Assembly: GCA_003694635.1 (NCBI GenBank)
Contig: RFKQ01000075.1
Location: 1 to 51,717, forward strand
From: Planctomycetota bacterium
Lineage (GTDB): Bacteria > Planctomycetota > J132
DNA: 51,717 nt
Direction of reading: 5' to 3'
In this document: positions 7,774 to 45,544 of the stretch, piece after piece
Layout: each line of letters opens with the position of its first letter
Numbering within the stretch: position 1 is the first letter of the stretch
The notes under the pieces: model-generated
The model's input: only the letters and a program-made list of their open reading frames with translations
Told to the model about the DNA's origin: nothing
Database searches by the model: none
Translations under genes and position numbers: made by a program

Positions 7774-9563
7774 CAAATCAAAGCCGCCCAGAAATCTCTA
7801 TTGTAGTTCCGGCCCACAATGAGGAGGAGAATCTAATCCCCCTAGTGGAAAAACTGCAAAACACCTTGCAGAAGGATTCTAAAAAAAGGGAATACGAAAT
7901 CGTTCTTGTGGATGACAATAGCACGGATGGTACCCCAGCGCTGGTGGACAAACTTGCCAACGAACACCCGCGCATACGCGCCGTTCATCGATACAAAGAT
8001 GGCGGCTTTGGCAACGCGGTAAAGCGAGGGCTTCGGGAAGCCCAAGGAAAGTTTATTGTACCGGTGATGGCGGATCTTTCTGAAGAGCCTGAAGACATTT
8101 TAAAATTGGTGGACAAACTGGAAGAAGGATATGATATTGCGTATGGCTCCCGTTTTTGCAAAGGCGGGAGCGTAGAGGGATATCCACGCTTAAAGTTGAT
8201 CGTAAACAGGTTTGGCAACCACTTAATTCGATTTCTTTTTGGAATTTCTCATAAAGATATTACCAACGCTTTTAAGGCTTACCGCCGAGAGGTCTTGGAA
8301 GCTGTAGGGATTGAGAATTTGAAATCATCGGACTTTTCGCTTACGATTGAAATCCCCTTAAAAGCGCATATCCTAGGTTTTAAAAGCGCAGAGGTCCCCG
8401 TTCGTTGGTACGGCCGGCAAAAGGGAGAAGCCAAATTAAAACTCTCGGAACACTGCCATAAATACGGTTTCCGTCTCCTTCAGATGTTTTTCCAAGGCAA
8501 TCAACTGGCCCTCCGAGAGCTGTTTGCTTCCATTGTGGGGAAGTCAAAAAAAAGAAGCATTCTCTATTTTCTCCTAGGCCTAGGGTTGGTATTGGCGTTG
8601 ATCCATTTGGCAGGATTGGCAAACATACAAGCTCTTATATTCAAAATATCGCCTTATTTCATTTTGGCTAGTCTTGGGGCGATTTTAAGCAGCTTTATTT
8701 TGCGCACATGGCGCTGGAGTGTGCTTTTGCGAAGCTGCGGTTATCGAGAAGAACGCAGCATTTTGTTCAAAAGTATCCTAAGCGGGTGGTTTTTAAACTA
8801 TCTTCTGCCCTTTCGGCTAGGAGATGCAGCTAGAGCGTTGAGCTTAAAAACCACTCGCCATAAGCCGCTCCTGATTTCTTTTTTTACCATTGTGCTGGAG
8901 CGACTGATGGATCTGGCAATCTTTTCTCTAGTCCTGGCCTATGCATGGGGGAGGCTTTCTTTCTCAAAAGAACAGTACACAAGCCTGCTCTGGATCGGAG
9001 TGGCAGTTGCTCTGGCGATCGGATTCACGATTTTGCTATGGAAATATGAGAAATGGCTGCTGAAATGTTTGCCAAAATTTCTTTTTGACCTCCAAGAAGA
9101 ACTGCGTCTATTTCCCCAAGCCGCTCGATCCATCTTTCAAAATCCTTTTGCGCTAGCCCTTTGCTTCGCGATCACAGTTGGCATTTGGTTTTTCGAAATC
9201 GCTAGCCTCTATTTCATCGGCAAAGGCCTAGGGCTGGATTTGCCCTTCTGGGAAAGCACGCTAGCTGGGATAAGTGCCTTCCTCGCCCAAGCCTTTCCCA
9301 CAATACCCGCAGGACTCGGCATACACGAAGCAGCCATTGCAAGCACCCTATACAGTAAAGGTATCCCTTTTGATCAAGGACTTTCCTTGGCCCTATTGGA
9401 TCATTTCTGCAGAATGCTGGTGATCTTTGGGCTCGGGTTAGTGGCCACTATACACCTTGGATTTGAATCCAGGCACTTTTTCCACCACCGCTCCCGCGCT
9501 TGGGAAAAAGTAAGAAAATCAACCAAAAGCAAACCACAGACTTCTGGGTTTGGAGACGAATAA
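7755..9563 (+). CDS. Family-2 glycosyltransferase (Dpm1/polyprenyl-phosphate sugar synthase-like) fused to a lysyl-PG-synthase-type (UPF0104, flippase-like) transmembrane domain
   Basis: The N-terminus is [14 protein letters not shown]...VDDNSTDGT (GT-A fold, DxD-like). The C-terminal half has about 8 hydrophobic helices with [12 protein letters not shown], typical of the LPG_synthase_TM family. It overlaps the upstream gene by 19 nt. Confidence 0.8.
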
Positions 9564-9785: not shown

Positions 9786-11510
9786 ATGGAACATCCCCGC
9801 ACAAAACCAGCTCTATTTGGGCAAATCGCCCTAGAATTGGGATTTCTCTCCCAAGAGGAACTAGAGGAAGTACTGAAATATCAACAAAAACTCCAAAGCC
9901 TAGGGTACAGCGAATTCTTCGGCGATATCTGCCTGAAACTAGGCTATTTGACAAAATCCCAAGTGGATCAGATCATCCAATACCAACGCAATACCACTCC
10001 CACCCCTTCCCTAACCTACGGCCAAATTGGACTGCAAAACGGCTTTTTTACCCCCCAACAACTCCAAGAATGCATCGAACTCCAAAAAAAATCACCCACC
10101 TACGCCCCCATTGGACACTACCTACTGAAAAAAAACTACATCACTCCAGAAAACCATCAAGCCATCCTTAAAGCGCTTTCAAGAGCCTCCTCCCCATCCC
10201 TCCCTCCTAAAACCGTACAGCTCACAAAAACCTCCCCCTCAGAACTCAATCAGCTCTACGGACGTGTTGCCCTAGAATACGGCATGGTAACCCCCCAACA
10301 ACTGGACGAATTTTTCTATAAAAAAGCTCCCGATGCCCAAAAATTTAAAAAATTGGAAGACTATCTTCTCGCCAAAAATTATATTACCACTGGAGACCAC
10401 CATTTCATCATCAAAACAATCGAAAAAAGAAAAATCTCCGAAAAATATACCCAACGACAAAATGAACTAAAAAATATCCACTATGGCAAAGGCTGGGGCA
10501 AACAACTAACCGTCCAATGGATCCAAGAACAGCTCTCCCTAGGAGAAACAAAAACCTCTAAATCCAAAACCAATCTCACCGAAGCGGAAATCCACTCCAG
10601 ACTACTCTTCCTAAAAATCAAACAAATGTTCTCCCCCAACGTCTTCCGTATCGTCGCCCCCCTCTCCCAAGGTGGAACAGCGGTGGTCTACCGAGCCATC
10701 TACCGCCAAACCGGCCAAGAAGTAGCCATCAAAATCCTACCCTCCTACGAAGTCTCAAAAGACGTCCTACCAAGGGATATGCTCCAAGACCAAGCCAGAG
10801 AAAAAAGATTTCAACGGGAAAAACTTATCCTCCAAAAAATCCATCACCCCAATATTGTCCAAATTTTAGATGCTGGCGAAGTCCAAGACTTTTCGTATTA
10901 TGTGATGGAACTTCTGGAAGGACTCACGCTAGACAGAATTATCTGGAAAGCCAAATACCTAGAAGAACGCTACGCCCTGGAAATCACCCTCTCCATCGCC
11001 CTAGCCCTTGAACATATTTGGAAACTGTCCGTCTTCCATAGAGATGTCAAACCGGACAATATCCTCATCCTACCAAATGGAAACATCAAACTACTGGACT
11101 TTGGATTGGCCAAACACCACCCACCAACATCTAAAAAACAAATTACGCCAGAAAATCTTATTCTAGGGACCCCTTCCTACATGGCCCCAGAACAATCTGG
11201 ACTGCTAAAAAATTTTGACCCAGATATCCGATCCGATATCTACTCCCTAGGTATCACCCTCTTCTATATGCTCGCCGGACACCCCCCCTACTCCCACCCC
11301 TCTCCCCTCTCTCTCATGATGATGCACCTAGAAGAAGAAATCCCCTCTATTCGACAAAAACGTCCCGAAATCTCACATCAAACCGAATCCATCCTCCAAA
11401 AAATGCTAGCCAAACACCCAGACTACCGCTACCAAACCCCATCTGAGCTGATCAACGACCTAAAAAAAGCCCTAGCTTTCTTTCTAAAAGAAAGAACCCA
11501 ATCTCCCTAG
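9786..11510 (+). CDS. Hanks-type Ser/Thr protein kinase with six N-terminal MshEN/T2SSE_N-like 24-aa repeats
   Basis: Kinase motifs present are GGTAVVYRA...VAIK, HRDVKPDNIL, DFGLA and GTPSYMAPE. An example N-terminal repeat is LFGQIALELGFLSQEELEEVLKYQ. Confidence 0.9.
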   Translation: MEHPRTKPALFGQIALELGFLSQEELEEVLKYQQKLQSLGYSEFFGDICLKLGYLTKSQVDQIIQYQRNTTPTPSLTYGQIGLQNGFFTPQQLQECIELQKKSPTYAPIGHYLLKKNYITPENHQAILKALSRASSPSLPPKTVQLTKTSPSELNQLYGRVALEYGMVTPQQLDEFFYKKAPDAQKFKKLEDYLLAKNYITTGDHHFIIKTIEKRKISEKYTQRQNELKNIHYGKGWGKQLTVQWIQEQLSLGETKTSKSKTNLTEAEIHSRLLFLKIKQMFSPNVFRIVAPLSQGGTAVVYRAIYRQTGQEVAIKILPSYEVSKDVLPRDMLQDQAREKRFQREKLILQKIHHPNIVQILDAGEVQDFSYYVMELLEGLTLDRIIWKAKYLEERYALEITLSIALALEHIWKLSVFHRDVKPDNILILPNGNIKLLDFGLAKHHPPTSKKQITPENLILGTPSYMAPEQSGLLKNFDPDIRSDIYSLGITLFYMLAGHPPYSHPSPLSLMMMHLEEEIPSIRQKRPEISHQTESILQKMLAKHPDYRYQTPSELINDLKKALAFFLKERTQSP

Positions 11511-11571: not shown

Positions 11572-12585
11572 ATGAAATTTTCTCTTACCCCTTTGTCCAA
11601 ATTCAAATCATCTTTGCCTATTTTGCTCTCCATAACTATCCTAATCCCAATCCCCCTACTCCTCTGGCTAGGCTACCTATGGCAAATCGCCCCCGGCATG
11701 CCTTTCCTAGACCTTCTCTCCGTAGAAAAAAAAACCTTCGTCGTCTTGGGCGATCCCCAACAAACCAGCTGGTGGGAAACCACCTTCCTGCAAAGATCCA
11801 ACAATCGTAAAGTCACCACCCGCCTCTTCCAATTTATCGCCGCAGAACAACCAGACTTTGTAGCCCTACTAGGAGACCTGGTTTTCTACGGCGCAAACCA
11901 CTCCAATTGGACAGACTTTGATCTCTTCGCCCAACCCTTGCAAAAAAGAGGAATTCCTACCCTTACCGTCCTAGGAAACCATGACTACTTCGGCCCCGAT
12001 TCGATCGCCTTGGCCAATGTGTATTCCCGATTCCCACAACTGAGCCAACAACATTGGTATCTCCGAATCTACGGCAGCCTTGCCCTGATTTTCTTAGACT
12101 CCAATCAGTCCGCCATGCCCCCCTCCCACTGGCAAAAACAAATCCATTGGCTAAAAAATACCCTAACCTCCCTCGAACAAAACCCCCGCATCCAAGCCAT
12201 CCTATTCCTCGCCCACCATAGCCCCTACACCAATGACCTCTACTCCCCAGATGCCCAACACCTACGCCCGTGGTTAAACCTCTTCTTCTCCAGCCCAAAA
12301 TCCATCCTCTTCCTAAGTGGACACTGCCACGGCTATGAACACTTTGTCAAACAAAAGAAACATTTCGTCGTCTCTGCAGGCGGTGGCGGCCCCCGCAAAA
12401 AACACCTCCAAGGCCCCAACCAACGCCACCCCGATCTCTACACCGGCCCCTACCCTCGCCCCTTCCACTATCTGCGCCTCCAATTGCAAAAGTCCCACCT
12501 CCACATACAAGCGATGGGACTCTTTTCCAACTCCCTCCGCTGCTTCGATGAGTTTTCCATCCCCCTCCCCACCACCCCCCAGTGA
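11572..12585 (+). CDS. Membrane-anchored calcineurin-like metallophosphoesterase
   Basis: It has an N-terminal TM helix, then VVLGDPQ, GDLVFYG, GNHD, AHHSPY and SGHCHGYEH, which is the metallophosphoesterase motif series. Confidence 0.8.
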   Translation: MKFSLTPLSKFKSSLPILLSITILIPIPLLLWLGYLWQIAPGMPFLDLLSVEKKTFVVLGDPQQTSWWETTFLQRSNNRKVTTRLFQFIAAEQPDFVALLGDLVFYGANHSNWTDFDLFAQPLQKRGIPTLTVLGNHDYFGPDSIALANVYSRFPQLSQQHWYLRIYGSLALIFLDSNQSAMPPSHWQKQIHWLKNTLTSLEQNPRIQAILFLAHHSPYTNDLYSPDAQHLRPWLNLFFSSPKSILFLSGHCHGYEHFVKQKKHFVVSAGGGGPRKKHLQGPNQRHPDLYTGPYPRPFHYLRLQLQKSHLHIQAMGLFSNSLRCFDEFSIPLPTTPQ

Positions 12586-12613: not shown

Positions 12614-12793
12614 AACCTACTCGTAAATCACCGGGGTTAAATACTCCCTCGCATGGGGACGAAAATGGGTCTCCATTAAATTCTTATAGTAAACCTATTT
12701 TAGACGCCTTCGAACAACCTACTCGTAAATCACCGGGGTTAAATACTCCCTCGCATGGGGACGAAAATGGGTCTCCATTAAATTCTTATAGTA
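12614..12793. repeat. 78-bp perfect direct repeat (12614-12691 = 12716-12793) separated by 24 bp; the second copy is the 3' end plus stop codon of the CDS at 12719..14146
   Basis: The string aacctactcgtaaatcaccggggttaaatactccctcgcatggggacgaaaatgggtctccattaaattcttatagta is read twice in the sequence. Confidence 0.95.
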
Positions 12794-14146
12794 TTTGTAA
12801 AAATACTCGTGCTCGTGGGGAGGGAAATCACTCCACTCAATGGCATATCGAATGATCTCATCAAAATAGCCCCTGTCGTAAAACTCAATAAGCTTGTCCT
12901 CCAAATCGCTGAAATTTTCCTCCACAAATTTGTTAAAATCCTCCTCCCCATAGTATTCCTCGGAAAGCTTTCGATGGTACTCATACTTCTCCAACTGACT
13001 CCTGTTGGGATCATTGAGGACCTTTAAATACCTCTCCTGCTCCATGTCCATCCTCAAATCCTTCTCCGTGACAGCACAGTAAATAATCCACTTCAACAAA
13101 GCGCCAATCACCCAAAGAAAATGCACGTGCAAAGAAGTAAAATTCGTGTCTGGACAAGCGTTGGCAAAATCAATTGGATGAATGATATTGTCCTTGATGA
13201 TCGCCTCGTAAGAGTTGTAATTCCAACGATGGTAAGAGTTGATAAACTTCACATAACTCGCAAGCCGCTCAAACATGTCCTTGTTGACCTTTAACTTCTC
13301 CTCCGAATAATGTTGATGGTGCGGCTTGTCCGGCTGATAACGCATGGGAATGATCTGAGGACCTAATGCCATACAACGAATAAAAACATCATAATCCTCA
13401 ATCGCCTCTTGCAAATGAAACGCCTTACCCCCCGTTTCGTCATATTTGGCGTACAACTCCTCCAATGAGCGCACCTTATACACTTCGCTGCCACCACCGC
13501 CTTGAGCCTTCTTAAGATAAAGGGGGAATTTATTGTCAAAATATTTCTCCACCGCCTCCTTGAGGTAATTTCCTTGATAATAAAAATCTTGGCGCATCTT
13601 TTTGTTGAGCTTTTGAAAATGAAGCGCCCGCTGATAATCGTGCTCCACCTTCTGCCAATCCGTCTGGCGCCGCCGCTCATCCCAGCCATATTTGGTGTAC
13701 TTAATGATCAACTGCTGGCGGTACTTCCACAAATCTTCCTTTTCCAACTCCTCCGTGTAAGGGCTGTATTGGGGCAACAACACCGTGATGGGAAACCTGT
13801 CCTTGGGATGCATCGCCCGAGCCATCAAATCGTACGTGCTATGCTTGTCATGGTTGGCAAAAGAATTGGGGTAATTTAAAATCTGCATCTGAGACTGCAC
13901 CGCCGCCTGGGCCCAATAGCGGTAGAAATCATTCCAGTGTACCGTGCGATCCACCACCAAATCCGCCTTATCCCGCAAACTCACCCCACACTGAATGGGC
14001 TCAGCAATCACCCGATCCAACTCCACTTTGTATTTTTTGCCCTTATAAGTGTAGGTCCTGTCCAAAAAACGATTGATCTCATTGCAAGCCCGACGCATGC
14101 TCCAGTCGTAAGAGGCCATAATGCAAATTCTCTTTTTGATCGCCAT
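12719..14146 (-). CDS. ATP-grasp-like ligase family protein (uncharacterised)
   Basis: The layout resembles ATP-grasp enzymes: an N-terminal pre-ATP-grasp region ([22 protein letters not shown]), a glycine-rich loop [35 protein letters not shown], and [12 protein letters not shown]. No precise family was recognised. Confidence 0.5.
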
Positions 14147-18522: not shown

Positions 18523-19160
18523 CGTAGAAATCCTCTCTGCAACTTTCTCTTTTTTTAAAAACTCTTGCGATTTAGAAAAAAAACCCTTTGTAAAACAACA
18601 TCTTTTCTATGAAAACGCCTGATCAGGGGGAAACCTCTTCAGAAAAATGCTCCCTCTCCCACCCTCCTCCCAAAAATTTTCTTACTTTTTCCTAAAAACT
18701 TCCCAAACTCCCCTCCATACTCCCTCCCAAAAATTTAAACAAAAACTTGCATTCTATCCCAATCCATCCTATGATATACCCTATATCCCCACAAACTCAA
18801 CCCCTCTATCCCTAAATCCCACATCGAGAAATTTACTCCACCCTACAATAAAAAATTATGAAAAATCGATACACCACCCTCTTCCTCTCCCACTTCCACC
18901 CGGGAAAAAATCCTATAAAATAGGAAAAATCTTTGAAAACTTCATCAAAGAAAATCTAACCTTCCCAAGATACGAAATCAACCAAAGAGGGTTCGCTATA
19001 CCAGTATGGAACTCGACTTCTCCAAAGAAGCCATGCAAATTCTATGAAAACTTCTCCAAACAAGATCAAAATCTTAGAAAAAAATCCATAAAATCAATTT
19101 ACCTAATTTAAAATTTGAAGTCCACTCTTCCTCTCCCCAAATCCTAACCATATCTCTTCC

Positions 19161-22833: not shown

Positions 22834-22950
22834 AATACCCTTGCCTTCTGTCTGTTAAATACATAAATCCGCTAACGGCTTACAATCCATAATTCTATCA
22901 TATATCTCCCCTATCTTCAAGCACTAATCCACTACAGGCGAACCAAATCT

Positions 22951-23661
22951 CTAACGCAAACGCAAAATCCTATCCCCCCTCAAATAAAAACTTGACCTAT
23001 GCTCTAACTCTAACCTCTTGCGCGCAAAAACTTCCCGAAAACCCTCCCGTAGCCTCCGGCGAAACTTTAACCCAACCGGAGCAGTGGAAATCGCCTCCTC
23101 CACCACCCTAGAAAAAATCGTATAAAACCTCTCTGCCCTCAACAACAAAAGACAATATACCCTCCCCTCACGCCGATCATAAAAATACCTCAAAGGCAAC
23201 GCCTCCAAAACCAAAGAACGAAGCAAAACATCCCGCGCCTCCCATCGATATAACACCCCATGCACCCGACAACCCCTACTCCCACCCTCCCGCAATCCAC
23301 ATGTGTGCCAACAAACCAACGATACCCAACTGTCCCAACGACTGCGCAAAAAATCCAATAAACTCCTGCGAGCCAAACGCAACGACTCCCCATAAGATAC
23401 CTTCACCGAAAAACGATGAGAACTCCATCCATACGATAAAAAATATCCCTGTACCGCATCCGATGATAAAAACCTCCCATGCACCAAACAAACCCTACCC
23501 ATGTCATACCCCCCTTCCCAACAAATACACCTGTCCCCAACCTCAACCCTCTCCTGAGCACAGGAAAACCAAATCAAACAAAATAAAACAACCCAACCTA
23601 CATCAACCCAACTTCGAAACAATAAGCGTAAAGCTGCCAACAATCTCCAAACCCTCCTCAC
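22951..23661 (-). CDS. Hypothetical lipoprotein
   Basis: It starts with GTG and has a signal peptide with a lipobox-like LIWFSC. No recognisable domain was found. It is Arg/Trp/Cys-rich, and its composition is dominated by the local G+T-rich coding strand. Confidence 0.45.
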   Translation of the reverse strand: MRRVWRLLAALRLLFRSWVDVGWVVLFCLIWFSCAQERVEVGDRCICWEGGYDMGRVCLVHGRFLSSDAVQGYFLSYGWSSHRFSVKVSYGESLRLARRSLLDFLRSRWDSWVSLVCWHTCGLREGGSRGCRVHGVLYRWEARDVLLRSLVLEALPLRYFYDRREGRVYCLLLLRAERFYTIFSRVVEEAISTAPVGLKFRRRLREGFREVFARKRLELEHRSSFYLRGDRILRLR

Positions 23662-29805: not shown

Positions 29806-29815
29806 CTCTCTCCCC

Positions 29816-31087: not shown

Positions 31088-31257
31088 CGCTACCTTTCCA
31101 ATCAAATCCTCCTATACACCAACCAAACCTTAATAAAAAACAAACAAATCGCTCCCTTCTCCAAATCCTCTAAAACCCTAAACCTAAATATTCTACCAAG
31201 CAAAAAAGAAAATTGCAAGTCAACCTCACCCCCAAACCACCTCCAAAATCATAAAAC

Positions 31258-33060: not shown

Positions 33061-33087
33061 CGCCTCGCTCCGGCCTCCACCAAAAAA

Positions 33088-35556: not shown

Positions 35557-35726
35557 TTCTTTACCTCACCTTCTTCTTTTTCGGGAAACTCCCTTTGAAT
35601 CAATAACTCACGCTTTCGAAAAACTCTTTTTGACTAGTAAAAAGCCCTCTTGAAAAAATTCCCCCGAAAAACCCCTCCCAAAAAAGTCCCCAAAACCCCT
35701 CCCCCCACAAGCCTCTCCCACCACAC

Positions 35727-37895: not shown

Positions 37896-37922
37896 TTCTA
37901 GCCTCCTAGAAAATTTTATCGT

Positions 37923-37952
37923 AGTGTAGCACCAAAAAAACTACCTTGTCAA
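37923..37952 (-). promoter_or_regulatory. Sigma70-like promoter for the pullulanase gene: TTGACA-18 nt-TACACT, followed by AGGAGG 6 nt before the ATG at 37895
   Basis: The minus strand reads cTTGACAaggtagtttttttggtgcTACACTacgataaaattttctAGGAGGctagaaATG. Confidence 0.5.
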
Positions 37953-37977
37953 GAGAAGAAAAAATTTTTTTCCCCAT

Positions 37978-38007
37978 TTGACACAGCGAGCGAAATTGTG
38001 GTATCAT
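37978..38007 (+). promoter_or_regulatory. Sigma70-like promoter TTGACA-18 nt-TATCAT, divergent from the previous one, about 170 nt upstream of the CDS at 38177
   Basis: The + strand reads ccccaTTTGACAcagcgagcgaaattgtggTATCATtgg. Confidence 0.45.
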
Positions 38008-38176
38008 TGGACCGAAAGCAAATTTTTAAAAATTCTGAATTGTAGTGTTGCATCCGACAAAAAACGCTGTAAGATAACCCAAAATTTCTAGTCCTCCTTG
38101 CCCTCCTCCCCGCAGCTAAGCCGCCCAGGGCTAGAATCAATCCTTAAAAATTTTTTTTAAACCCTGGAGCAGTACA

Positions 38177-38779
38177 ATGAAATGGTTGATGGAATACGGC
38201 GATTGGATTGAGGTCGCCTTTAGCCTTGTCTCCCTCCTGACAATGTTTGTGGTCATTTGGCTAAACTATGAGGCCAATAAGCTCGCAGAAAAAGGTGTGG
38301 AAGAGGGAAAACTCATATGGGAACTGGAAAATCGCCCCTACGTCTACTTCCAAATAGATATGGATCTAGGGGCCAATACCATCTCTTTCTGCCTCTACAA
38401 CCGAGGGAAAGGTATTGCCAAAAATATTCGCCTAGAACTCAAAGAAAATCTAACCTGTATCCCCGGACGAGAAGAAATCCCTGTCCAAAAAATCGCAATG
38501 CTCCAAGAAGGCCTCGCTTTCCTAGCCCCAGAGGGAAAATTCCTAGAACTTGTAGGCGATACCCCAACTTTCTTTCGAATCAATAAAGATATCCCCGAAC
38601 TCCATGGAACCATTTTCTACGAAGATGCCGCAGGGAAAAAATACCAAACCCCCGTAAGAGTTAACCTAAAAGCCTTAGGCAAAAGAAGAGAAGTCGTCCC
38701 CGCTGGAATCGACCAAGTGGTTCAAGTCCTAGAAGATATAGAAAGAACCCTGCGAATGCGGCAAATGCGCCGACGCTAA
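38177..38779 (+). CDS. Hypothetical single-pass membrane protein, paralog A
   Basis: It has an N-terminal TM helix and then a beta-rich domain. Blocks NRPYVYFQIDMD..LYNRGKGIAKNIRLEL, LHGTIFYEDAAGKKYQ and VVQVLEDIERTL are shared with the next ORF. Confidence 0.6.
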   Translation: MKWLMEYGDWIEVAFSLVSLLTMFVVIWLNYEANKLAEKGVEEGKLIWELENRPYVYFQIDMDLGANTISFCLYNRGKGIAKNIRLELKENLTCIPGREEIPVQKIAMLQEGLAFLAPEGKFLELVGDTPTFFRINKDIPELHGTIFYEDAAGKKYQTPVRVNLKALGKRREVVPAGIDQVVQVLEDIERTLRMRQMRRR

Positions 38780-38830
38780 AATACTCTAAAAACAGATACC
38801 CTAATCGCCAAGGGAAAAAAGGAAAAAATT

Positions 38831-39403
38831 ATGTGGATTATCTTGGTAAAACTGATCATCACCGCCCTCGTCACCATCGCCACCGTCATCCTGCTGGTCT
38901 TCAACCTCAAAGCAAATCGCCTCACCCGACTCTCCATCCAACAAATGGAAAATGCCCGTAAAGAAGAATTCCGCCCCTACGTCCTCTTCGATATGGAATT
39001 CGATGCCACCCACGTCTTTATGACCCTGCGCAACGTGGGAAAATCCCCCGCCTTCCAAGTCCAACTCCAACTCGATCAAGATCTAAAAGTCTGGAACTCC
39101 CTCGTGGGCGAGGAAATCTATACCCCCAAAGATATGGCCATCACCGATGAAATCGAAATGATCACCCCCGGAAATGAATTTCGAGAATGGGTGGACTTTA
39201 GCGATTTCTTCTTCCGCAACAACGAAAATATCTCCAACCTCTCCGGTAAAGTCACCTACCAAGACGCAGCGGGCAATCCATACCAATTTCTAATCCACCT
39301 AGATATCGAACCCTTCCGACACCGCTATATCTACATTCGAAAGGATATGAAAAGCCTAGTGCAAACCCTCGAACGCATCCGAGACCACATAAAAAAACTC
39401 TAA
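38831..39403 (+). CDS. Hypothetical single-pass membrane protein, paralog B
   Basis: It has an N-terminal TM helix. Blocks FRPYVLFDMEFD..LRNVGKSPAFQVQLQL, LSGKVTYQDAAGNPYQ and LVQTLERIRDHI align with paralog A. Confidence 0.6.
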   Translation: MWIILVKLIITALVTIATVILLVFNLKANRLTRLSIQQMENARKEEFRPYVLFDMEFDATHVFMTLRNVGKSPAFQVQLQLDQDLKVWNSLVGEEIYTPKDMAITDEIEMITPGNEFREWVDFSDFFFRNNENISNLSGKVTYQDAAGNPYQFLIHLDIEPFRHRYIYIRKDMKSLVQTLERIRDHIKKL

Positions 39404-39421
39404 AGCAAACCCTCCTTAAAC

Positions 39422-39880
39422 ATGCTCTGGTACGTAGACCCACCAAAAATCATGGGAAGCTCCCACCCCGACGAATCACAAATCCTAGAGTGCGCCCGGC
39501 AAGGAATACAGACCGTGATCTGCTTGCTCTCCCCCCACCAACCCCTCCGATACTCTCCAGAAAATCTCAAAAAACATGGCATCGCCTGGTACCATATCCA
39601 AATCGAAGACTTCTGCGCACCTACCCTAGAACAATTTCAAAGCTTCTTCCAAATCCTAGACGAACGCCTACCCCACGGAGGCGTACTCTTCCACTGCCAA
39701 GCAGGCTGCGGACGTACGGGTACCATGGCCGCCGCATACTGGATCCGCCAGGGACTCTCCGCTCCACAAGCCATAAACAAAGTGCGCCAAAGCAACCCCC
39801 ACGCTGTGGAAACCCAAGAGCAAATGCAAAGCCTAAAAGACCTCGAAAAACAACTCCAAAATCCACAAAAAGAGAAATAA
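39422..39880 (+). CDS. Dual-specificity (Cys-based, PTP-superfamily) protein phosphatase
   Basis: It has the active-site P-loop HCQAGCGRTG (HCxxGxxR[ST]) and an upstream acidic residue in IQIEDFCAP. Confidence 0.8.
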   Translation: MLWYVDPPKIMGSSHPDESQILECARQGIQTVICLLSPHQPLRYSPENLKKHGIAWYHIQIEDFCAPTLEQFQSFFQILDERLPHGGVLFHCQAGCGRTGTMAAAYWIRQGLSAPQAINKVRQSNPHAVETQEQMQSLKDLEKQLQNPQKEK

Positions 39881-40027
39881 CCCCCCTCATCTCCATTCCC
39901 CAACATCTCACCAACTCCAACCCTCTAAACCCGGAACCTCAACCTAACCTAAATCTTTGAAAGTGCCAAAAAAACCTTTCAAAAACAACCGATTCCCCCC
40001 CCTTCACAACGCAAGGATCACCCCACC

Positions 40028-43000
40028 ATGAAAACAAAAAAATTCTCCAAACTCGCCCTGCTCAACCGGGGAGAACCCGCAGTGCGCTTTCTCCAAGCAA
40101 TCCAAGAAGTCAACCGCCTGGAAAACGCCAATATCCAAACCTATTTCCTCTACACCGATCCAGATAAAAACTCCCTTGCCATCCATCGATGCGATGTACC
40201 CGTCTATCTAGGACCTCCCTTCTTCCAAAACGGAACCGAAAGAAAAAGCAGCTACCTCAACTACTCAAAAATCCGCCAAATTCTCCTTGACTATAAAATC
40301 GACGGCGTCTGGGTCGGCTGGGGATTTGCCGCCGAAGACCCCAACTTCGCCGCCCTCTGCGAAGAACTAGGCGTAACGTTCATCGGACCATCCTCCCAAA
40401 CCATGCGCATGCTAGGGGATAAAATCCTCTCGAAAAAATTGGCCGAACAAGCTAAAATCCCCGTTATCCCCTGGAGCGGAGGCGTTGTCCAAACACTCGA
40501 AGAAGCCATGGCCACAGCCAAAAAACTCGGCTACCCCCTCGCCCTCAAAGCCTCCGCCGGGGGAGGAGGACGAGGTATCCGAAAAGTACAAAAAGAAAAA
40601 GAACTCAAAGAACTCTTCCACTCCGCTCAACAAGAAGCCCTAAAAGCCTTCGGATGCGGAGATCTGTTTCTAGAAGCCCTCATCCCTAGCCCACGCCACA
40701 TCGAAGTGCAAATCGCCGCCGACCTCTACGGCAACTGCCAAGCCCTCGGAGTGCGAGACTGCTCCGTGCAAAGACGACACCAAAAAATTATCGAAGAAAC
40801 CCCCTCCCCCGTCCTGTCTCCAAAACTAGAAAAACAAGTCTGCCAATACGCCGTAAAACTAGCCAAAACCGCCAAATACCACAACCTCGGCACCGTGGAA
40901 TTCCTCTTCAAAGACGGAAAATTCTACTTCATGGAAATGAATACCCGCCTGCAAGTCGAACACCCCATCACAGAACTTACCTACGGACTGGACCTAGTTA
41001 AACTCCAAATCTCCATCGCAAGAGGAAAAAAACTACCTGCCCCCTTCCCCTCTCCCAAAGGACACGCCATCGAAGTCCGGCTCAACGCCGAAGACCCTGA
41101 ACAAGGCTTCGCACCCGCCCCCGGCAAAGTCCTCCACTACTCCCCCCCCACAGGTATCGGTATTCGAGTGGATACCGGACTCCGTATCGGAGATAGTATC
41201 CCCCAAGAATTTGACTCCATGATCGCCAAAATCATCGCCTACGGAGCAAACCGAAACGAAGCTATCGCACGCCTAGATAGAGCACTCCGAGAAATGAACA
41301 TGATCATCGAAGGAGGAACCACCAACAAAGGCTTCCTGTTAGAACTTATCCGCAACCGAGCCTTTGTCCAAGCTAAAATCACCACCGATTGGCTGGATAA
41401 ACGCCAAAAAAGAAGCCCCATCTTCCCCAAAAAAAACACCCAGCTCGCCCTCCTCTGCACCGGCATCGAAATCTATGAACGACGCTTCGATAAAATCAAA
41501 GAACGCTTCTTCCAAACAGCCTTCCGAGGACGCCCCAATCTCGACTTCCCCCAACACCCCCAAGAAATCACCCTCCAACACGAAAAAAAAACCTATAAGT
41601 TTTCCATCGCTAAAATCGATCTCTATACCTACCGCATCTACTCTACAACCAAACAATGGACGGATGTAATCTACCGAAAAGTCAATCCCTTCCAAGCCGA
41701 ACTTCTCTATCTCAACAAGAGGTATACAATCTTCCACTCCTGGCAAAAACACCTTGACTACGTGGAGGTGGACGGCATCCACTACCTCATCCGTGAAGAT
41801 ACCGGCGGCGCCATCACCTCCCCCATGCCCGCACTCGTCCTCAACATAGCCGTCCAAGAAGGACAACGTATCAAAGCAGGCGACAAAGTAGCCGTGCTCG
41901 AAGCCATGAAAATGGAAATGCCTATTTTCGCCTCAGAGGACGGCGTGGTTAAAAAAGTTATGATTCAGCCAGGCTCCCAAATCGCCGCCGGCGAAGCTAT
42001 CCTACTCCTAGAAACCACAGGAAAAGAAAACTCCCCAAACACAACCCTGGAACTAAAACCTCTCCACTCCCTAAACGACCTTAGCCATGTCTCCACCATC
42101 CTAGAAGAACTCAAACACCTCTTCCTAGGATACGATTTCCCCGAATCCTACGTAAACACCGCCCTAAAAAAACTCATAAACTCGAATTTACCACCCCAAC
42201 CACAAACGGAAATCCTTGCCAAATTTAAAGAAATCCTCAAAATCTATACAAGCCTAGAAGACCTCTTCCAAACCTCCCCCCAAAACGCACAAAGAAGGCA
42301 CTTTTCCAGCAAAGAATACCTCTACCTCTACCTCCACTGGTTCTCCGGAGAAGGTGAAGGACTGCCCGAGGAATTCTTAACCAAACTTAAAAACGCCCTG
42401 AGCTGCTACAAAATCGAAAGCCTAAAACCCCAAGATAGACTAAAAAACGCAATTTTACGAATATTTTTGTCTAACACTCGCTTAAAACTCAAAAACCAAG
42501 TCCTAAAATCCTTGCTAAAACTCCTCCTCGAACACCCCCACTGGCTCCAACCAGCGGATCGAAGGGAGTTTCGCCTCCTGATCACAAATGTGGCAGAAAT
42601 CGCTCAAAAAAGCTTCCCCGAACTCTATAACATCTGCCGACGAGTCCTCTACGCCCTATTCGACGGCCGCTATATGGAAAGAAGAAGGCAGAAAATCCTC
42701 TACAAAGTGGACCTGATGCTGGATAAATTGGCAAACTCCCCATCAGACTCCGAACGCGCCTCCCAAATGGCCTGGCTGCTCAACGTGCCCATTTCCCTAA
42801 AAAAATACCTCTCTCAAAAAATAATCAACTCCCCACAACTGGCCCCCCATATTCTCGAAATCTTTGTTCGAAGGCTCTATCAAAAACACTATCTCAAAGA
42901 GCTCTACACCATAACCTCCAAGAAACTCTCCCAGTGTGTGGCCCAGATCAAAGAGGATTCCCAGCCAATTCACCTCACCTTTCTACACAAAAACTACCGG

Positions 43001-45544
43001 CAATTCTCCGAAGCTTGCCGCGATTTGAGCGATCTGCTCACCCGCCTAAACGCAAAACAGGCCATCGGAGATATTCTCCTAACCTCTCGCACCAAAATCT
43101 CCCGCAATCAAGAACTGGAGTTCCTCAACACCTCCCTCCAATCCTTCTCGCCTCCCCCTTCCCTGCAACGCCTCTCTGTCCTGATCTATTCCCCCAAAAA
43201 CCAAGATATCCACATCTACACCTTCCGGCACAACAGCTCGAAAAAAAGCTGGCAAGAAGTGGAATACCTGCGCGATATCCATCCCACCCTCAATCAGAAG
43301 TTAGAGCTCTGGCGATTTGGGCATTTTCAATTGGAGCGTCTTCCTTCTAAAGATGAGATTTACTTGTTTAAAGGAATCTCCAAAATCCACGCTCACGACC
43401 AGCGCCTCTTCGCCATCGCCCAAATTAGAGACTTTGCCCCCGTGCGAAATGAGCGGGGCGAAATCGTCCAACTTCCCCACCTAGAATACATAATCTTAGA
43501 AGCCCTGGACGCCATTCGAGAAGAATTAGCCCACCGCAAGGACCCCAAAACCCTGAACTGGAATCGTCTGATCTTCTATCTCTTGCCCCCCATCCTCATC
43601 TCTAAAAAAAATATCGAAGCCCTCGCCAGACGCCTCTGGCCCCTCGCCAAAGGACTGGATCTGGAAAAAGTGGTCTTCCGTATCAAACTCCGAGAAAAAC
43701 CCGAAGAAATTCCCCAAGATACCATCGTCCAAATCAAACCCTCCGGACAGGATATGGTCGTGGTGTACAAAATCCCCGATAATTCCCTGATCAAGCCGAT
43801 GAACGACTACTCTATGAAAGTTCTATGGGCCAAACAACGGGGATTGGTTTACGCCTATGAACTGGTAAAAATGCTCACCCCCCAAGCATCTACGGGAGAA
43901 TTGCCCCCCGGCCAGTTCCAAGAATACGACCTAGTGGATGGAGTTTTCCAACCAGTCCAGCGGGAGTACGGCCAAAATCACGCCAATGTGGTGGTAGGAA
44001 CCATCTGCAACTTCACCTCCAAATATCCAGAGGGAATGACACGGGTACTCATTGTAGGGGATTGTACCCGCTCTATGGGGAGTTTGGCCGAGCCGGAATG
44101 TTCGAGAATTCTAGCTGCTCTTGATCTGGCAGAAGAAAAGAGACTGCCGGTGGAGTGGTACGCGGTCTCCTCCGGAGCGAAAATTTCTATGGATAGCGGG
44201 ACGGAAAACCTAGACTGGACAGCTAAAGTCCTAAAACGCATCATTGAATTCACCCAAAAAGGCGGCATCATCAACATTATTGTGGACGCCATCAATGTAG
44301 GCGCCCAGTCGTATTGGAACGCGGAAGCCACCATGCTGATGCACACAAAAGGCTGCCTGATTATGACTCCAAATGGAGCAATGGTGCTGACGGGAAAAAA
44401 CGCCCTCGATTACTCCGGAGGAGTGTCCGCCGAAGATAACCTCGGAATCGGCGGCTACGAACGAATTATGGGCCCCAATGCCCAAGCCCACTATTACGCC
44501 CAAAATTTGATGGAGGCGTACAAAATCCTCTTTGAATTCTACGACTACACCTACATTTTGCCCGGGGAAAAACTCCCCCGCCTACGAAAAACCACCGATC
44601 CATGGGATAGAGATATCTGCCGCTCCCCCTACCGGGATCGAGAAGGAGGCGACTTTCAAACAGTAGGAGATATTTTCTCCCAGAAAAAAAATGCCGAGCG
44701 CAAAAAGCCCTTCTCCATCCGCGAAGTAATGCGAGCCCTACAAGATACAGATGCTAGCGCCTTAGAACGCTGGGCCGCGATGAAAGACGGAGAACTCGCT
44801 GTGGTACTGGATACCCACATTGGCGGCGTACCCGCCTGTATGATCGGGATTGAGAGCAAACCACTCGAACGATTCGGCTATGTCCCAAGCTACGGGCCTG
44901 AAGTGTGGACGGGAGGAACCCTCTTTCCCAAGTCCTCCAAAAAAGTAGCCCGGGCCATCAACAGCGCCAGCGGCAATCGAGCGGTGGTGGTGCTCGCCAA
45001 CCTTTCCGGATTCGACGGCTCACCGGAATCCCTGCGCAAGCTCCAACTGGAATACGGCGCAGAAATCGGCCGCGCCGTGGTCAACTACCAAGGCCCAGCC
45101 TTGATCTTCTGCGTCATCTCCCGCTACCACGGAGGTGCTTACGTGGTGTTTTCCCGCTTTCTCAACCCCTACTTTACCTCCCTTGCGCTGGAGGGCTCGT
45201 TCGCTTCCGTTATCGGCGGAGCGCCGGCGGCCTACGTGGTATTCCCACGCAAAGTAAAGGCGCTTGTGATGCAAAACAAACGCCTAAATCAACTCAAAGA
45301 ACGCTGGAAAAAAGCGTCTAATAAACAACGAGCCATACTGCGACAAAAGTACGATGAGCTGTACCAACAACTCTACCAAAAAGCACTCCGCCAAGTGGCC
45401 GAAGAATTCGATCAGATCCATACCGTGGAACGGGCAAAAAAAGTAGGCTCCCTAGACCGAATTTTTGCCCCAAAAAATCTAAGAAAATGCATCATTGAAA
45501 TTCTACATCAGAAAATCTCCAACTACCAAAAAAACACAAAATAA
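40028..45544 (+). CDS. Single-polypeptide multidomain acyl-CoA (acetyl-CoA-type) carboxylase: biotin carboxylase - BCCP - central domain - carboxyltransferase
   Basis: The BC ATP-grasp domain has GYPLALKASAGGGGRGIRKV and MEMNTRLQVEHPITE. The biotinyl motif is EAMKMEM. The CT domain has VGDCTRSMGSLAEPE, SSGAKI and LANLSGFDGS. Confidence 0.85.
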   Translation: MKTKKFSKLALLNRGEPAVRFLQAIQEVNRLENANIQTYFLYTDPDKNSLAIHRCDVPVYLGPPFFQNGTERKSSYLNYSKIRQILLDYKIDGVWVGWGFAAEDPNFAALCEELGVTFIGPSSQTMRMLGDKILSKKLAEQAKIPVIPWSGGVVQTLEEAMATAKKLGYPLALKASAGGGGRGIRKVQKEKELKELFHSAQQEALKAFGCGDLFLEALIPSPRHIEVQIAADLYGNCQALGVRDCSVQRRHQKIIEETPSPVLSPKLEKQVCQYAVKLAKTAKYHNLGTVEFLFKDGKFYFMEMNTRLQVEHPITELTYGLDLVKLQISIARGKKLPAPFPSPKGHAIEVRLNAEDPEQGFAPAPGKVLHYSPPTGIGIRVDTGLRIGDSIPQEFDSMIAKIIAYGANRNEAIARLDRALREMNMIIEGGTTNKGFLLELIRNRAFVQAKITTDWLDKRQKRSPIFPKKNTQLALLCTGIEIYERRFDKIKERFFQTAFRGRPNLDFPQHPQEITLQHEKKTYKFSIAKIDLYTYRIYSTTKQWTDVIYRKVNPFQAELLYLNKRYTIFHSWQKHLDYVEVDGIHYLIREDTGGAITSPMPALVLNIAVQEGQRIKAGDKVAVLEAMKMEMPIFASEDGVVKKVMIQPGSQIAAGEAILLLETTGKENSPNTTLELKPLHSLNDLSHVSTILEELKHLFLGYDFPESYVNTALKKLINSNLPPQPQTEILAKFKEILKIYTSLEDLFQTSPQNAQRRHFSSKEYLYLYLHWFSGEGEGLPEEFLTKLKNALSCYKIESLKPQDRLKNAILRIFLSNTRLKLKNQVLKSLLKLLLEHPHWLQPADRREFRLLITNVAEIAQKSFPELYNICRRVLYALFDGRYMERRRQKILYKVDLMLDKLANSPSDSERASQMAWLLNVPISLKKYLSQKIINSPQLAPHILEIFVRRLYQKHYLKELYTITSKKLSQCVAQIKEDSQPIHLTFLHKNYRQFSEACRDLSDLLTRLNAKQAIGDILLTSRTKISRNQELEFLNTSLQSFSPPPSLQRLSVLIYSPKNQDIHIYTFRHNSSKKSWQEVEYLRDIHPTLNQKLELWRFGHFQLERLPSKDEIYLFKGISKIHAHDQRLFAIAQIRDFAPVRNERGEIVQLPHLEYIILEALDAIREELAHRKDPKTLNWNRLIFYLLPPILISKKNIEALARRLWPLAKGLDLEKVVFRIKLREKPEEIPQDTIVQIKPSGQDMVVVYKIPDNSLIKPMNDYSMKVLWAKQRGLVYAYELVKMLTPQASTGELPPGQFQEYDLVDGVFQPVQREYGQNHANVVVGTICNFTSKYPEGMTRVLIVGDCTRSMGSLAEPECSRILAALDLAEEKRLPVEWYAVSSGAKISMDSGTENLDWTAKVLKRIIEFTQKGGIINIIVDAINVGAQSYWNAEATMLMHTKGCLIMTPNGAMVLTGKNALDYSGGVSAEDNLGIGGYERIMGPNAQAHYYAQNLMEAYKILFEFYDYTYILPGEKLPRLRKTTDPWDRDICRSPYRDREGGDFQTVGDIFSQKKNAERKKPFSIREVMRALQDTDASALERWAAMKDGELAVVLDTHIGGVPACMIGIESKPLERFGYVPSYGPEVWTGGTLFPKSSKKVARAINSASGNRAVVVLANLSGFDGSPESLRKLQLEYGAEIGRAVVNYQGPALIFCVISRYHGGAYVVFSRFLNPYFTSLALEGSFASVIGGAPAAYVVFPRKVKALVMQNKRLNQLKERWKKASNKQRAILRQKYDELYQQLYQKALRQVAEEFDQIHTVERAKKVGSLDRIFAPKNLRKCIIEILHQKISNYQKNTK

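Follow-up and report, generated by a model that had tools for sequence, protein, structure and literature searches.

What makes one strand of a bacterial chromosome strongly A+C-rich over tens of kilobases, whatever the direction of the genes on it? The question is raised by the 51,717-nucleotide contig RFKQ01000075.1 (the window), for which a preliminary description had reported a + strand rich in A+C and poor in G+T at positions 9480-43900. The host is an uncultured hot-spring planctomycete, with MAG J132 (GTDB class UBA8742, Jinata Onsen) as the putative source. The sampled spring was at 55-63 °C, and growth of J132 is predicted to be optimal at 41 °C. The MAG comprises 2.52 Mb at 68.6% completeness, values that suggest a chromosome of about 2.5-3.7 Mb. 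Genome context was covered by the contig itself and by one further contig attributed to the same MAG (L007).

Extent and Shape of the Skewed Domain

Base counts on the + strand of 9480-43900 (C 11657, A 10534, T 7225, G 5005) gave a GC skew of -0.399 and an AT skew of +0.186, with an excess of C over G at z = 51.5 and of A over T at z = 24.8. The hand counts on which the preliminary description had relied were exact (13021-13080, C23/G6; 17701-17760, A26 C16 T10 G8; 38881-38940, C26/G7; 40141-40200, C21/G7). Sliding windows placed the skew, -0.40 over the region, far above the magnitude of 0.15 that had been set as the limit of the normal range; in one-kb windows between 10 and 37 kb it varied from -0.16 to -0.58. 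The interval first proposed is indeed strongly skewed, but the best-scoring skewed segment of the raw sequence was 9482-48010 (38.5 kb, GC skew -0.376), and the skew was graded rather than uniform. The description of a block of about 34 kb had also missed the collapse of the skew to about zero on both sides within the same contig. The domain is dome-shaped and bounded; it starts near 9.3 kb, ends at 48-49 kb and has its core at 17.3-32.9 kb, and its flanks are unskewed. Its borders were taken from a penalized-likelihood segmentation of third-codon positions, backed by the maximum-scoring segment and the one-kb profile. The segments are given in order along the 51.7 kb, with the A/C share of third positions:

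1-818, skewed patch with the polarity of the domain,.76 A/C; REP-like array (1-190) and the 3' two-thirds of hemC (191-818)
821-6387, first part of the left flank, unskewed, 56% A/C; 5' part of hemC, hemA, AAA ATPase and epimerase
about 2600-3500, small skewed island over the PAP2 gene (2637-3248, + strand), in the same contig but apart from the main domain
6390-7749, weak reversed skew, 34% A/C; REP-like array and epimerase (6709-7773)
7752-9278, second part of the left flank, unskewed, 50% A/C; 5' part of the GT2/LPG-synthase gene
9281-49105, whole skew domain from the segmentation, + strand A+C-rich and - strand G+T-rich
9281-17263, left shoulder, 75% A/C
17266-32860, core, 85% A/C
32863-42706, right shoulder, 79% A/C, ending midway through the acetyl-CoA carboxylase gene
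42709-49105, right tail, 66% A/C, beginning within the carboxylase ORF, near codon 890 of 1838
49108-51694, - strand, right flank, unskewed,.50 A/C; within a type III restriction-enzyme-like helicase/endonuclease gene (48670-51696)

Third positions in the core were G.06, C.52, A.33 and T.09 on the + strand, and the window contained 15 runs of at least 40 consecutive third positions made up only of A and C, against 0 in shuffles. All 14 canonical G-quadruplex motifs lay on the - strand, and the GGG runs of that strand peaked in the core. The left edge of the domain lay inside the GT2/LPG-synthase ORF (7755-9563), and the right edge near radical-SAM and restriction-enzyme genes. Transitions in skew fell inside three intact ORFs, those of hemC, the GT2/LPG synthase and the carboxylase, and every ORF across a transition was intact and retained full Pfam domains. 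In hemC, the 5' third (819-1144) had a GC3 skew of +0.22 on the + strand, and the two halves of the carboxylase had GC3 skews on that strand of -0.71 (N-half) and -0.36 (C-half). In the PAP2 island, GC skew at codon positions 1, 2, and 3 was -0.26, -0.29, and -0.55.

Polarity and Distribution Among Sites

Four-fold sites read on the coding strand were G.51, T.30, A.11 and C.08 in - genes and C.57, A.25, T.10 and G.08 in + genes, each composition being the complement of the other, and intergenic DNA inside the region had a GC skew of -0.50. It is thus the DNA strand, and not transcription, that sets the bias, as had been claimed. The sign of the third-position GC skew on the coding strand was set by strand, with values of -0.53 to -0.79 in + genes and +0.52 to +0.85 in most - genes; two - genes had weaker skew (12719-14146, +0.24; 35727-37895, +0.39). 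Over all genes the skew did not track the coding strand, which was G+T-rich in - genes and A+C-rich in + genes, a pattern other than that of a transcription-type asymmetry. At equal position, + and - genes showed no systematic difference in skew.

Skew was greatest at neutral (silent and intergenic) sites, as a replication-type asymmetry requires. At codon positions 1 and 2 it was about 0.32 of that at position 3 (GC3 about 0.8, against deviations of about 0.25). Between gene orientations, T/(C+T) was.84 vs.31 in NNY codons and G/(A+G) was.85 vs.09 in NNR codons. G and T were jointly enriched on the - strand, as in the signature of C>T deamination. No clear 5'-neighbor specificity of C loss was found when C depletion was normalized to unskewed genes; depletion was similar after T, C, and G, and the TC context of an APOBEC-like enzyme was rejected on that basis.

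The strand bias is mutational in origin. Selection in place of mutation, acting on the structure of mRNA, on codon usage or on protein composition, might be read from the retention of GTG in + genes and the preference for CTT in - genes, both off the general trend. That reading is already contradicted by the intergenic skew and the mirror-image genes, and we consider it hardly credible: opposite codon preferences in + and - genes are incompatible with a single tRNA pool, and the skew of intergenic DNA equals that of silent sites, where it is stronger than at replacement sites.

Effects on Protein Composition

The genes in which the consequences for proteins were followed are:

9786-11510, + strand, Ser/Thr kinase paralogous to that at 20404-22833, GC3 skew -0.62
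16804-18522, - strand, PMT/GT39 glycosyltransferase, G+T-rich coding strand, product rich in Phe, Arg, Gly and Val
19161-20495, + strand, GT87 glycosyltransferase, A+C-rich coding strand, product rich in Leu, Pro, Thr, Gln and His
20404-22833, - strand, Ser/Thr kinase containing two kinase domains, coding-strand GC3 skew +0.85
29816-31105, - strand, seryl-tRNA synthetase (SerRS), housekeeping gene of the core, coding-strand GC3 skew +0.79
40028-45544, + strand, fused acetyl-CoA carboxylase of 1838 aa, ORF intact, degree of skew changing inside it

Part of the last of these had been included in a single + gene at 38831-43000 in the preliminary description; the ORFs there are in fact 38831-39403, 39422-39880, and 40028-45544. 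The broader claim that the bias reshapes proteins held. Products of - genes contained more Gly (9.6 vs 4.9%), Val (8.9 vs 3.6%) and Arg (9.4 vs 4.1%) than those of + genes, and less Pro (3.3 vs 6.5%), Gln (2.9 vs 6.0%) and His (1.4 vs 3.4%). Leucine was encoded by CTC or CTA at 80 of 91 codons in the GT87 gene and by TTG, TTA or CTT at 87 of 93 in the GT39 gene. For the kinase at 9786-11510 the amino-acid index was -22, lower than in any of 119 homologues (minimum -16). The most likely explanation is that the proteins stay functional yet shifted in composition, with selection filtering the outcome.

In a relative-rate test, SerRS showed no protein acceleration against the unskewed relative at 66% identity (p-distance 0.412 vs 0.426 for that relative; 18 vs 22 unique changes), and local hypermutation was rejected.

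Origin of the Block

Such a domain could in principle be mimicked by chimerism of the MAG contig or by chemical damage to one strand in the library, the contig having been co-assembled from short reads of a complex community. Three Logan contigs from independent assembly span 21.7 kb, four of the transitions among them, and match the contig at 99.97-99.98% identity. The junction of the hemC patch was reproduced in one Logan contig (L009) and the carboxylase was intact in another (L010). Independent assembly thus revealed no irreproducible junction, no ORF was broken at a junction, and chemical damage cannot respect codon positions. An artefact is, in our judgment, the least probable of all the explanations weighed here.

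The closest homologues were all found in one related organism, at 66% identity for SerRS, 61% for the kinase and 54% for the hexapeptide transferase, and the pairing of the SerRS and hexapeptide transferase genes was kept within about 5 kb in that relative. A 444-aa gene beside the kinase in the relative was tried as a counterpart of GT87 by synteny and rejected, as it is not homologous. Skew was absent from the orthologous genes of the closest relatives sampled (66 and 61% identity; J112, a member of the same class). In L007, skew followed the DNA strand in 10 of 10 genes of both orientations, which fits a genome-wide strand process, and was weaker than in the domain (GC3 +0.04 to +0.56).

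Strand-symmetrized tetranucleotide signatures of the left flank (821-9278) and L007 were correlated at r = 0.94, so the flank is not obviously recent foreign DNA. Against this native-like flank the shoulders were correlated at 0.86-0.87 and the core at 0.67. The restriction-enzyme-like gene of the right flank had a signature unlike the rest of the contig. Genes of the flanks are of accessory type (polysaccharide synthesis, restriction enzyme). Recent horizontal transfer was considered as a reason for the lack of skew in hemA; no close donor was found, the best match being at 43% (Calditrichota) and that to relative J112 at 38%. A G-rich, REP-like intergenic motif always had its G-rich strand on the locally G+T-rich strand; this genome-specific motif, AAAGTTTTTGGGAGGG..GGTAGGGG, had 0 matches among GTDB representatives, so the MAG is not in that set.

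The composition of the 39-kb block is sharply unlike that of its flanks, as would be expected had it been acquired horizontally from a donor whose whole genome was extremely skewed. The block nevertheless carries usually single-copy housekeeping genes (SerRS, carboxylase) with closest homologues in the same planctomycete clade, the placement that vertical descent predicts, its shoulders keep the signature correlation given above, its edges are graded and lie within genes, and no such donor is known. Within the contig, no integrase, transposase or other mobility gene, tRNA, direct repeat or other repeat boundary was found at the edges, and the homologues of SerRS and the kinase gave no sign of a discordant phylogeny. 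Acquisition from such a donor therefore appears very improbable. The most likely explanation, as judged from these sequence comparisons, is that the block is native to this chromosome and not foreign.

Comparison With Known Strand Asymmetries

We know of no bacterial chromosome with a replication skew this large. Across 1111 surveyed genomes, a composite strand-bias score had phylum means of about 0.01-0.10, with 0.023 for Planctomycetes (PMC4613354). A value of -0.40 over 34 kb is outside the range of sequenced bacteria when set against composite scores of at most 0.10, a comparison that is indirect because the scales differ; on that footing the preliminary description's view that the bias is far beyond normal bacterial skew held. 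Like the GC skew between bacterial leading and lagging strands, which has been ascribed to deamination of the transiently single-stranded strand (PMC3269012), the bias follows the DNA strand, makes one strand G+T-rich and is strongest at silent and intergenic sites. It differs in size (-0.40 across 34 kb, growing to about -0.8 at silent sites) and in extent, since leading/lagging skew is constant over a replichore, whereas here it spans only about 39 kb and has graded edges inside genes.

The light strand of vertebrate mtDNA is A+C-rich at silent sites, where G amounts to a few percent. The silent-site composition of the domain is close to that of the light strand, as are the transitions implied, C>T and A>G together on one exposed strand with an A+C-rich partner and very low silent-site G (.06 in the core). 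The silent sites of the domain (G below 10%, A+C above 80%) match the pattern that in mtDNA has been explained by deamination of C and A on the single-stranded strand, with a gradient tied to single-stranded time and an effect on protein composition (PMC3269012). Vertebrate mtDNA is, however, a 16-kb organelle replicon with defined origins, while the present case is a chromosomal block with unskewed flanks and no origin identified. The gradient of skew in the domain has the form of a dome. A second mitochondrial parallel is the mitogenome of the thermoacidophile Galdieria sulphuraria, in which GC skew is 0.74, keeps its sign in antisense genes and is strongest at four-fold sites, and in which amino-acid composition is distorted; its authors tied the skew to heat-accelerated ssDNA damage and unidirectional replication (PMC4316638). 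The domain shares the extreme size, independence of gene orientation, maximum at four-fold sites and distorted amino acids. The Galdieria mitogenome is skewed throughout, and its G-rich strand is also rich in A (purine loading); in the domain, richness in G goes with richness in T. The skew of the domain matches animal mitochondria rather than normal bacterial replication skew.

Two local asymmetries were also considered. In Alphaproteobacteria, GC-skew peaks within chromosomes are reported to coincide with core, low-plasticity regions and with GTA genes (PMC9836097). The likeness is that skew strength is heterogeneous within a chromosome and strongest in long-conserved regions; the peaks differ in being reported for leading-strand genes and put down in part to codon choice, whereas here both orientations share the DNA-strand bias, and the skew of the domain appears to be of another order of size. 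GC skew at R-loops is local, lies at CpG-island promoters and switch regions with a G-rich displaced strand, and can reinforce itself through deamination of that strand (PMC3787257). It is eukaryotic and spans one to a few kb, with transcription setting its orientation, while in the domain polarity is independent of genes over 39 kb.

Explanations for the Domain

The bias to be explained follows the DNA strand, is greatest at neutral sites, shifts proteins, is local and is absent from the sampled relatives. Tentatively, and at somewhat less than an even chance, we favor a native block near mutational equilibrium under strong strand-specific, replication-linked deamination pressure; the deamination, its link to replication and the reason for its locality are what we infer from the patterns. 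C>T and A>G changes would accumulate on the - strand, making it G+T-rich and the + strand A+C-rich whatever the gene direction. Under a transitions-only equilibrium, four-fold sites suggest two strand-asymmetry factors with a product of about 17, or about four-fold each. The most likely source would be asymmetric single-strand exposure in replication, with the - strand as lagging-strand template for leftward forks, and a warm habitat and/or weak uracil/hypoxanthine repair may amplify the asymmetry. Selection would act as a filter, leaving third positions and intergenic DNA most skewed and positions 1 and 2 at about one third. The graded, bounded shape could reflect the time for which each block kept its orientation, a position-dependent mix of fork directions, or both.

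Mirror-image sites, the mtDNA-like composition, the strand-following skew of L007 and the temperature of the spring speak for replication-linked deamination, as do the alphaproteobacterial precedent and the accessory-type genes of the flanks; the predicted growth optimum of only 41 °C counts against it. The locality of the skew also counts against a replication model, because it drops to about zero on both sides in one contig and inside three intact ORFs, edges that inversion or insertion of whole blocks does not predict. The native-like signature of the left flank and the lack of a close donor for hemA weigh on the same side. Within the 51.7 kb, sign and size were not constant as along a replichore that switches only at origin or terminus; the profile was a dome and not the step expected there. 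No DnaA-box cluster, tRNA or Rfam match marking an origin, terminus or edge was found within the contig. When slow sites were compared with fast sites, genes of intermediate skew fell on the equilibrium line, so a stable gradient of intensity fits better than blocks in transit.

The local, graded skew that ignores gene boundaries, with intermediate genes that look equilibrated, would also fit a domain-restricted process that, apart from normal fork passage, repeatedly left the - strand single-stranded over tens of kb. We regard such a process as rather unlikely. A candidate is persistent R-loops from G-rich leftward transcripts, including read-through antisense to + genes, in which deamination of the displaced strand would raise its G content and thereby strengthen the R-loops. 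A secondary start of unidirectional or strand-displacement replication is a further candidate, as is recurrent long-range resection or break-induced replication. Leftward reading of 59% of the domain's coding DNA, including an 18-kb run at 20.4-37.9 kb, would yield G-rich RNA, and flank and L007 are without extreme skew. The G-quadruplex motifs and GGG runs of the - strand and the constant orientation of the REP-like motif point the same way, but these asymmetries may be consequence and not cause. About 10 kb of + genes (38.2-47.9 kb, including the essential carboxylase) have the same polarity, so antisense transcription would have to dominate there, and the absence of a systematic difference between + and - genes at the same position tells against the process as well. 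Models with one source (origin, break or oriT) do not, by our reasoning, predict a mid-peaked dome, and no replication-initiator, relaxase or nuclease gene was found in the domain. It is doubtful that bacterial chromosomes hold self-contained 'skew islands', tens of kb in which one strand is chronically single-stranded or unrepaired; in these, self-reinforcing R-loops or secondary strand-displacement replication would produce a mitochondria-like composition while neighboring DNA stays normal.

History may have left traces in the slow sites. In the left flank, 7 of 7 segments had slow sites leaning opposite to the polarity that third positions predict, weak evidence that hints at a different orientation history. 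In the TPR gene (46418-47869), slow sites were more skewed than third positions predict (residual -0.14), as would be expected of a relic in which an ancestral genome-wide extreme asymmetry has since relaxed and is kept only in blocks that escaped replacement, recombination and rearrangement. A similar idea has been put forward for the alphaproteobacterial GC-skew peaks (PMC9836097). We think a relic improbable: the nearest sampled relatives are unskewed at orthologous genes, decaying silent sites would fade evenly and not as a dome, and the core is as extreme as any known equilibrium.

Implications

The asymmetry is of a known kind, strand-following and deamination-like; what would be new, if they hold up, are its size and locality in a bacterial chromosome. 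Should both hold in the full genome, it would be the strongest strand asymmetry known to us in a bacterial chromosome. The distorted k-mer signature of the core could cause contigs to be lost from bins, and the MAG is 68.6% complete. Strand bias also favors spurious ORFs and can mislead composition-based predictors, such as the growth-temperature estimate for J132. If size and locality hold, the genome would also offer a natural experiment, with near-zero, moderate and extreme asymmetry side by side and paralogous kinases on opposite strands. Heat-accelerated deamination of ssDNA as a driver of GC skew would become testable, as would the factor that sets its local intensity (fork direction, residence time or R-loops) and the extent to which mutation bias alone remodels proteins, which here double either in Gly, Val and Arg or in Pro, Gln and His.

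Strand Bias in the Window

The window, a single complete contig of 51,717 bp from an NCBI MAG labelled Planctomycetota bacterium, was strongly asymmetric over much of its length. Between 9480 and 43900 the + strand contained 11657 C, 10534 A, 7225 T and 5005 G, giving a GC skew of −0.399, an AT skew of +0.186 and an excess of C over G with z = 51.5, and at one-kb resolution the GC skew ran from −0.16 to −0.58 between 10 and 37 kb. The preliminary description had claimed a strong + strand skew here, and the computed values agree; its four hand counts of 60-nt lines were all exact on recount.

At four-fold degenerate sites, read on the coding strand, − genes of the core had G.51, T.30, A.11 and C.08, and + genes had C.57, A.25, T.10 and G.08. 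These compositions are complementary and give an identical picture once read on the + strand. T was the final base of 84% of NNY codons in − genes vs. 31% in + genes, and G that of 85% vs. 9% of NNR codons. Intergenic DNA within the region had a GC skew of −0.50, and the shift at codon positions 1 and 2 was about one-third of that at position 3 (slope 0.32). Because the bias is maximal at neutral sites, extends to non-coding DNA and has the opposite sense in opposite-strand genes, it stems from mutation and is tied to the DNA strand. That it follows the strand and not transcription had been proposed from the sequence. Neither transcription-coupled effects nor selection on codons or mRNA can be its main cause.

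Canonical G-quadruplex motifs (four runs of at least three G) numbered 14 on the − strand and 0 on the + strand of the whole window. R-loop feedback, a candidate reason for the local character of the bias, would fit this strong asymmetry of G-runs and quadruplexes as well as the long run of leftward genes, but it would require dominant antisense transcription across 10 kb of + genes. Two of the 14 motifs sit in the small PAP2 island (2885–2904 and 3196–3220).

Extent and Edges of the Skewed Domain

Segmentation of third codon positions, based on the fraction of A or C on the + strand, resolved the profile as follows.

Segments of the window, with the fraction of A or C at third codon positions on the + strand
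191–818:.76
821–6387:.56
6390–7749:.34, weakly reversed
7752–9278:.50
9281–17263:.75
17266–32860 (core):.85 (G.06, C.52, A.33, T.09)
32863–42706:.79
42709–49105:.66
49108–51694:.50

The skew of the block first described (9480–43900) is real, but its extent and form required revision to a bounded, graded domain, with the top-scoring skewed segment on the raw sequence at 9482–48010. The bias is confined to this ∼39-kb block of a hot-spring planctomycete chromosome. Three transitions fell inside intact ORFs, namely hemC (+ strand GC3 skew, i.e., GC skew at third codon positions, of −0.68 at 191–818 and +0.22 at 819–1144), the GT2/LPG-synthase gene (about 160 codons upstream of the stop) and the carboxylase (GC3 skew weakening from −0.71 in the N-half to −0.36 in the C-half). 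No tRNA, Rfam match, integrase, transposase or DnaA-box cluster was found at any edge in the window.

Three contigs from an independent Logan assembly of run SRR7905022 matched the window at 285–6546, 28816–32087 and 39138–51346 with 99.97–99.98% identity. They bridged the junction in hemC, the PAP2 island, the shift within the carboxylase and the right edge, which contradicts an artefact as the cause. The run is from sediment of the Jinata hot spring source pool, Japan, at 55–63°C (PMC12501874). Window proteins have accessions RME03865, RME03881 and RME03898, and the contig probably belongs to MAG J132 (RFKQ00000000), a member of GTDB class UBA8742 with 2.52 Mb in 158 contigs (N50 22.5 kb), 68.6% completeness, a GC content of 47.1%, 1877 CDS and a predicted optimal growth temperature of 41°C (PMC6759342 Table S6). 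No other planctomycete MAG in that study matches the window in GC content, and the accession range RME02294–RME04099, 1805 numbers wide, is compatible with a genome of 1877 CDS.

The local character of the bias could reflect a strong, uniform asymmetry acting on blocks of different history. In its favour, the flanks are accessory in nature (genes for polysaccharides, and a type III restriction-like gene whose tetranucleotide signature is foreign), and an alphaproteobacterial precedent places skew peaks in low-plasticity regions (PMC9836097); in seven of seven left-flank segments positions 1 and 2 leaned opposite to the third-position prediction, a point weak either way. Transitions that fall within genes, and a left flank whose signature looks native, argue against such a history. 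A stable gradient of intensity, e.g., where forks run in both directions or where some local process exposes single strands, would instead be consistent with the dome-shaped profile and with edges that ignore gene boundaries; genes of intermediate skew also fall on the equilibrium line for slow vs. fast sites, again weak either way. Horizontal acquisition and selection are each contradicted by the present evidence.

The restriction-like helicase/endonuclease gene (48670–51696, −) was the sole part of the contig with a foreign-looking signature. It is one ORF of 1008 aa in the NCBI contig and was called as two genes of 393 and 475 aa in a Logan contig over the right part of the window (L010, 9533–12208), the sequences differing at only 3 bases, which may represent strain variation or a pseudogene.

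A REP-like intergenic repeat family occurred at 1–190, 6430–6700, 18620–18745 and 48634–48671, with weaker copies at 31222–31261 and 35656–35695. In each unit the G-rich motif AAAGTTTTTGGGAGGG..GGTAGGGG precedes a perfect palindrome, CGGAACCTTTTTTCTAAAAAGGTTCCG; tandem arrays are common, and orientation matches that of the neighbouring genes. The strict motif had 0 matches in GTDB representative genomes. A perfect 78-nt tandem direct repeat (12614–12691 and 12716–12793, 100% identical, 24-nt spacer) sits at the convergent 3′ ends of 11572–12585 and 12719–14146, its second copy overlapping the end of the latter ORF, which matches no Pfam family and is less skewed in GC3 than the genes around it.

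Effects on Proteins

The ORFs are genuine genes that match Pfam families strongly, among them seryl-tRNA synthetase (SerRS), a fused 1838-aa acetyl-CoA carboxylase, two Ser/Thr kinases, PMT/GT39 and GT87 glycosyltransferases, two isoamylase-like enzymes and one porin. As the preliminary description held, the bias reshapes these proteins. Relative to + genes, core − genes were enriched in Gly (9.6 vs. 4.9%), Val (8.9 vs. 3.6%) and Arg (9.4 vs. 4.1%), and depleted in Pro (3.3 vs. 6.5%), Gln (2.9 vs. 6.0%), His (1.4 vs. 3.4%), Thr (2.9 vs. 5.2%) and Ile (4.1 vs. 7.0%). Leucine was encoded by CTC or CTA at 80 of 91 codons in GT87 (+) and by TTG, TTA or CTT at 87 of 93 in GT39 (−). On an amino-acid index of (G+V+W+F+C) minus (T+P+H+Q+N+K), the + strand kinase scored −22.0, below all 119 homologues (mean −6.1, minimum −16.0), and its − strand paralogue −2.2 vs. 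−8.1 in the unskewed ortholog. The highly conserved SerRS shifted by only +1.8 SD (Trp +5 SD). A relative-rate test found no acceleration of the SerRS protein. The spectrum is thus distorted, with no evidence of a raised rate of protein change.

In the − strand kinase (20404–22833) an internal duplication of ∼890 nt (71–75% DNA identity) has produced two complete kinase domains; the duplication is retained in the nearest relative's 61% ortholog. The N-terminal repeats of the kinase are common to a planctomycete kinase family. The carboxylase (40028–45544, +) is a eukaryote-style single polypeptide of 1838 aa in a planctomycete, with biotin carboxylase, BCCP, ACC_central and carboxyltransferase domains. 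A LamB-like porin (31258–33060, −) carries N-terminal zinc ribbons, and a 1104-aa protein (24423–27737, −) has eight glucodextranase-B-type Ig-like repeats; the architecture of each is unusual. ORFs 22951–23661 (−) and 18647–19111 (+), of extreme composition (e.g., Arg/Leu/Val/Trp/Gly-rich) and without Pfam match, may be spurious and favoured by the skewed base composition. The 761 bp at 23662–24422 contained no ORF >64 aa.

Related Lineages and Other Parts of the Genome

The nearest homologues (SerRS 66%, kinase 61%, hexapeptide transferase 54%) were on two contigs of run ERR14790946, which were unskewed (43–54% A or C at third positions), as were the examined contigs of J112, the spring's other low-GC MAG (GC 40.5%) of class UBA8742. 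The extreme skew therefore postdates the split from these lineages. A further 14.7-kb contig of SRR7905022 (L007) is taken to be from the same MAG as the window, because it encodes kinase RME04099 and resembles the unskewed left flank in strand-symmetrised tetranucleotide signature (correlation 0.94). In 10 of its 10 genes, whichever their orientation, one and the same DNA strand had more G than C at third positions, with moderate GC3 skews of +0.04 to +0.56. If L007 is so placed, a strand-following asymmetry is present elsewhere in the genome, below the level of the core. The hemA gene (1086–2396, −) was nearest to sequences of Calditrichota (43%), an abundant phylum of the Jinata spring, and only 38% identical to hemA of J112, which hints at an old xenologous replacement.

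Proposed Mechanism and Comparison with Known Systems

On the − strand C and A are scarce and T and G abundant, as would result if deaminations of C to U (T) and A to hypoxanthine (G) struck that strand far more than the + strand. The composition of the leading strand in bacteria and of the heavy strand in vertebrate mitochondria has been explained in this way, C deamination being >100-fold faster in single-stranded DNA (PMC3269012). Assuming a transitions-only equilibrium, − strand ratios at four-fold sites of T/C = 3.75 and G/A = 4.6 suggest two strand-asymmetry factors with a product of ∼17, or about four-fold each. C loss, normalised to unskewed genes, had no clear 5′-neighbour preference, so that spontaneous hydrolysis would fit better than a TC-specific deaminase. 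The simplest origin of one-sided single-strandedness would be replication, with the − strand as lagging-strand template of leftward forks, and a warm habitat or repair defect could increase the amplitude. Replication-type asymmetric deamination is tentatively considered the best explanation, at slightly under an even chance; a process restricted to the domain is a serious rival, though a rather unlikely one.

The region shares three defining features of bacterial replication skew but lacks two, constancy along the chromosome and normal magnitude. A survey of 1111 bacterial genomes reported phylum means of 0.01–0.10 (Planctomycetes 0.023) for a composite bias score that is not GC skew (PMC4613354); the window is far stronger, as had been anticipated, although the different scale makes this comparison indirect. 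Literature searches on extreme or local bacterial skew turned up no comparable chromosomal case. In kind the phenomenon is strand compositional asymmetry; in size it stands alongside organelle genomes, such as vertebrate mtDNA and the Galdieria sulphuraria mitogenome, which has a GC skew of 0.74 that, as in the window, is not inverted in antisense genes and for which heat has been proposed as a cause (PMC4316638). The bias is thus real, mutation-driven, strand-specific and organelle-like in strength, and the interpretation first placed on it is supported.
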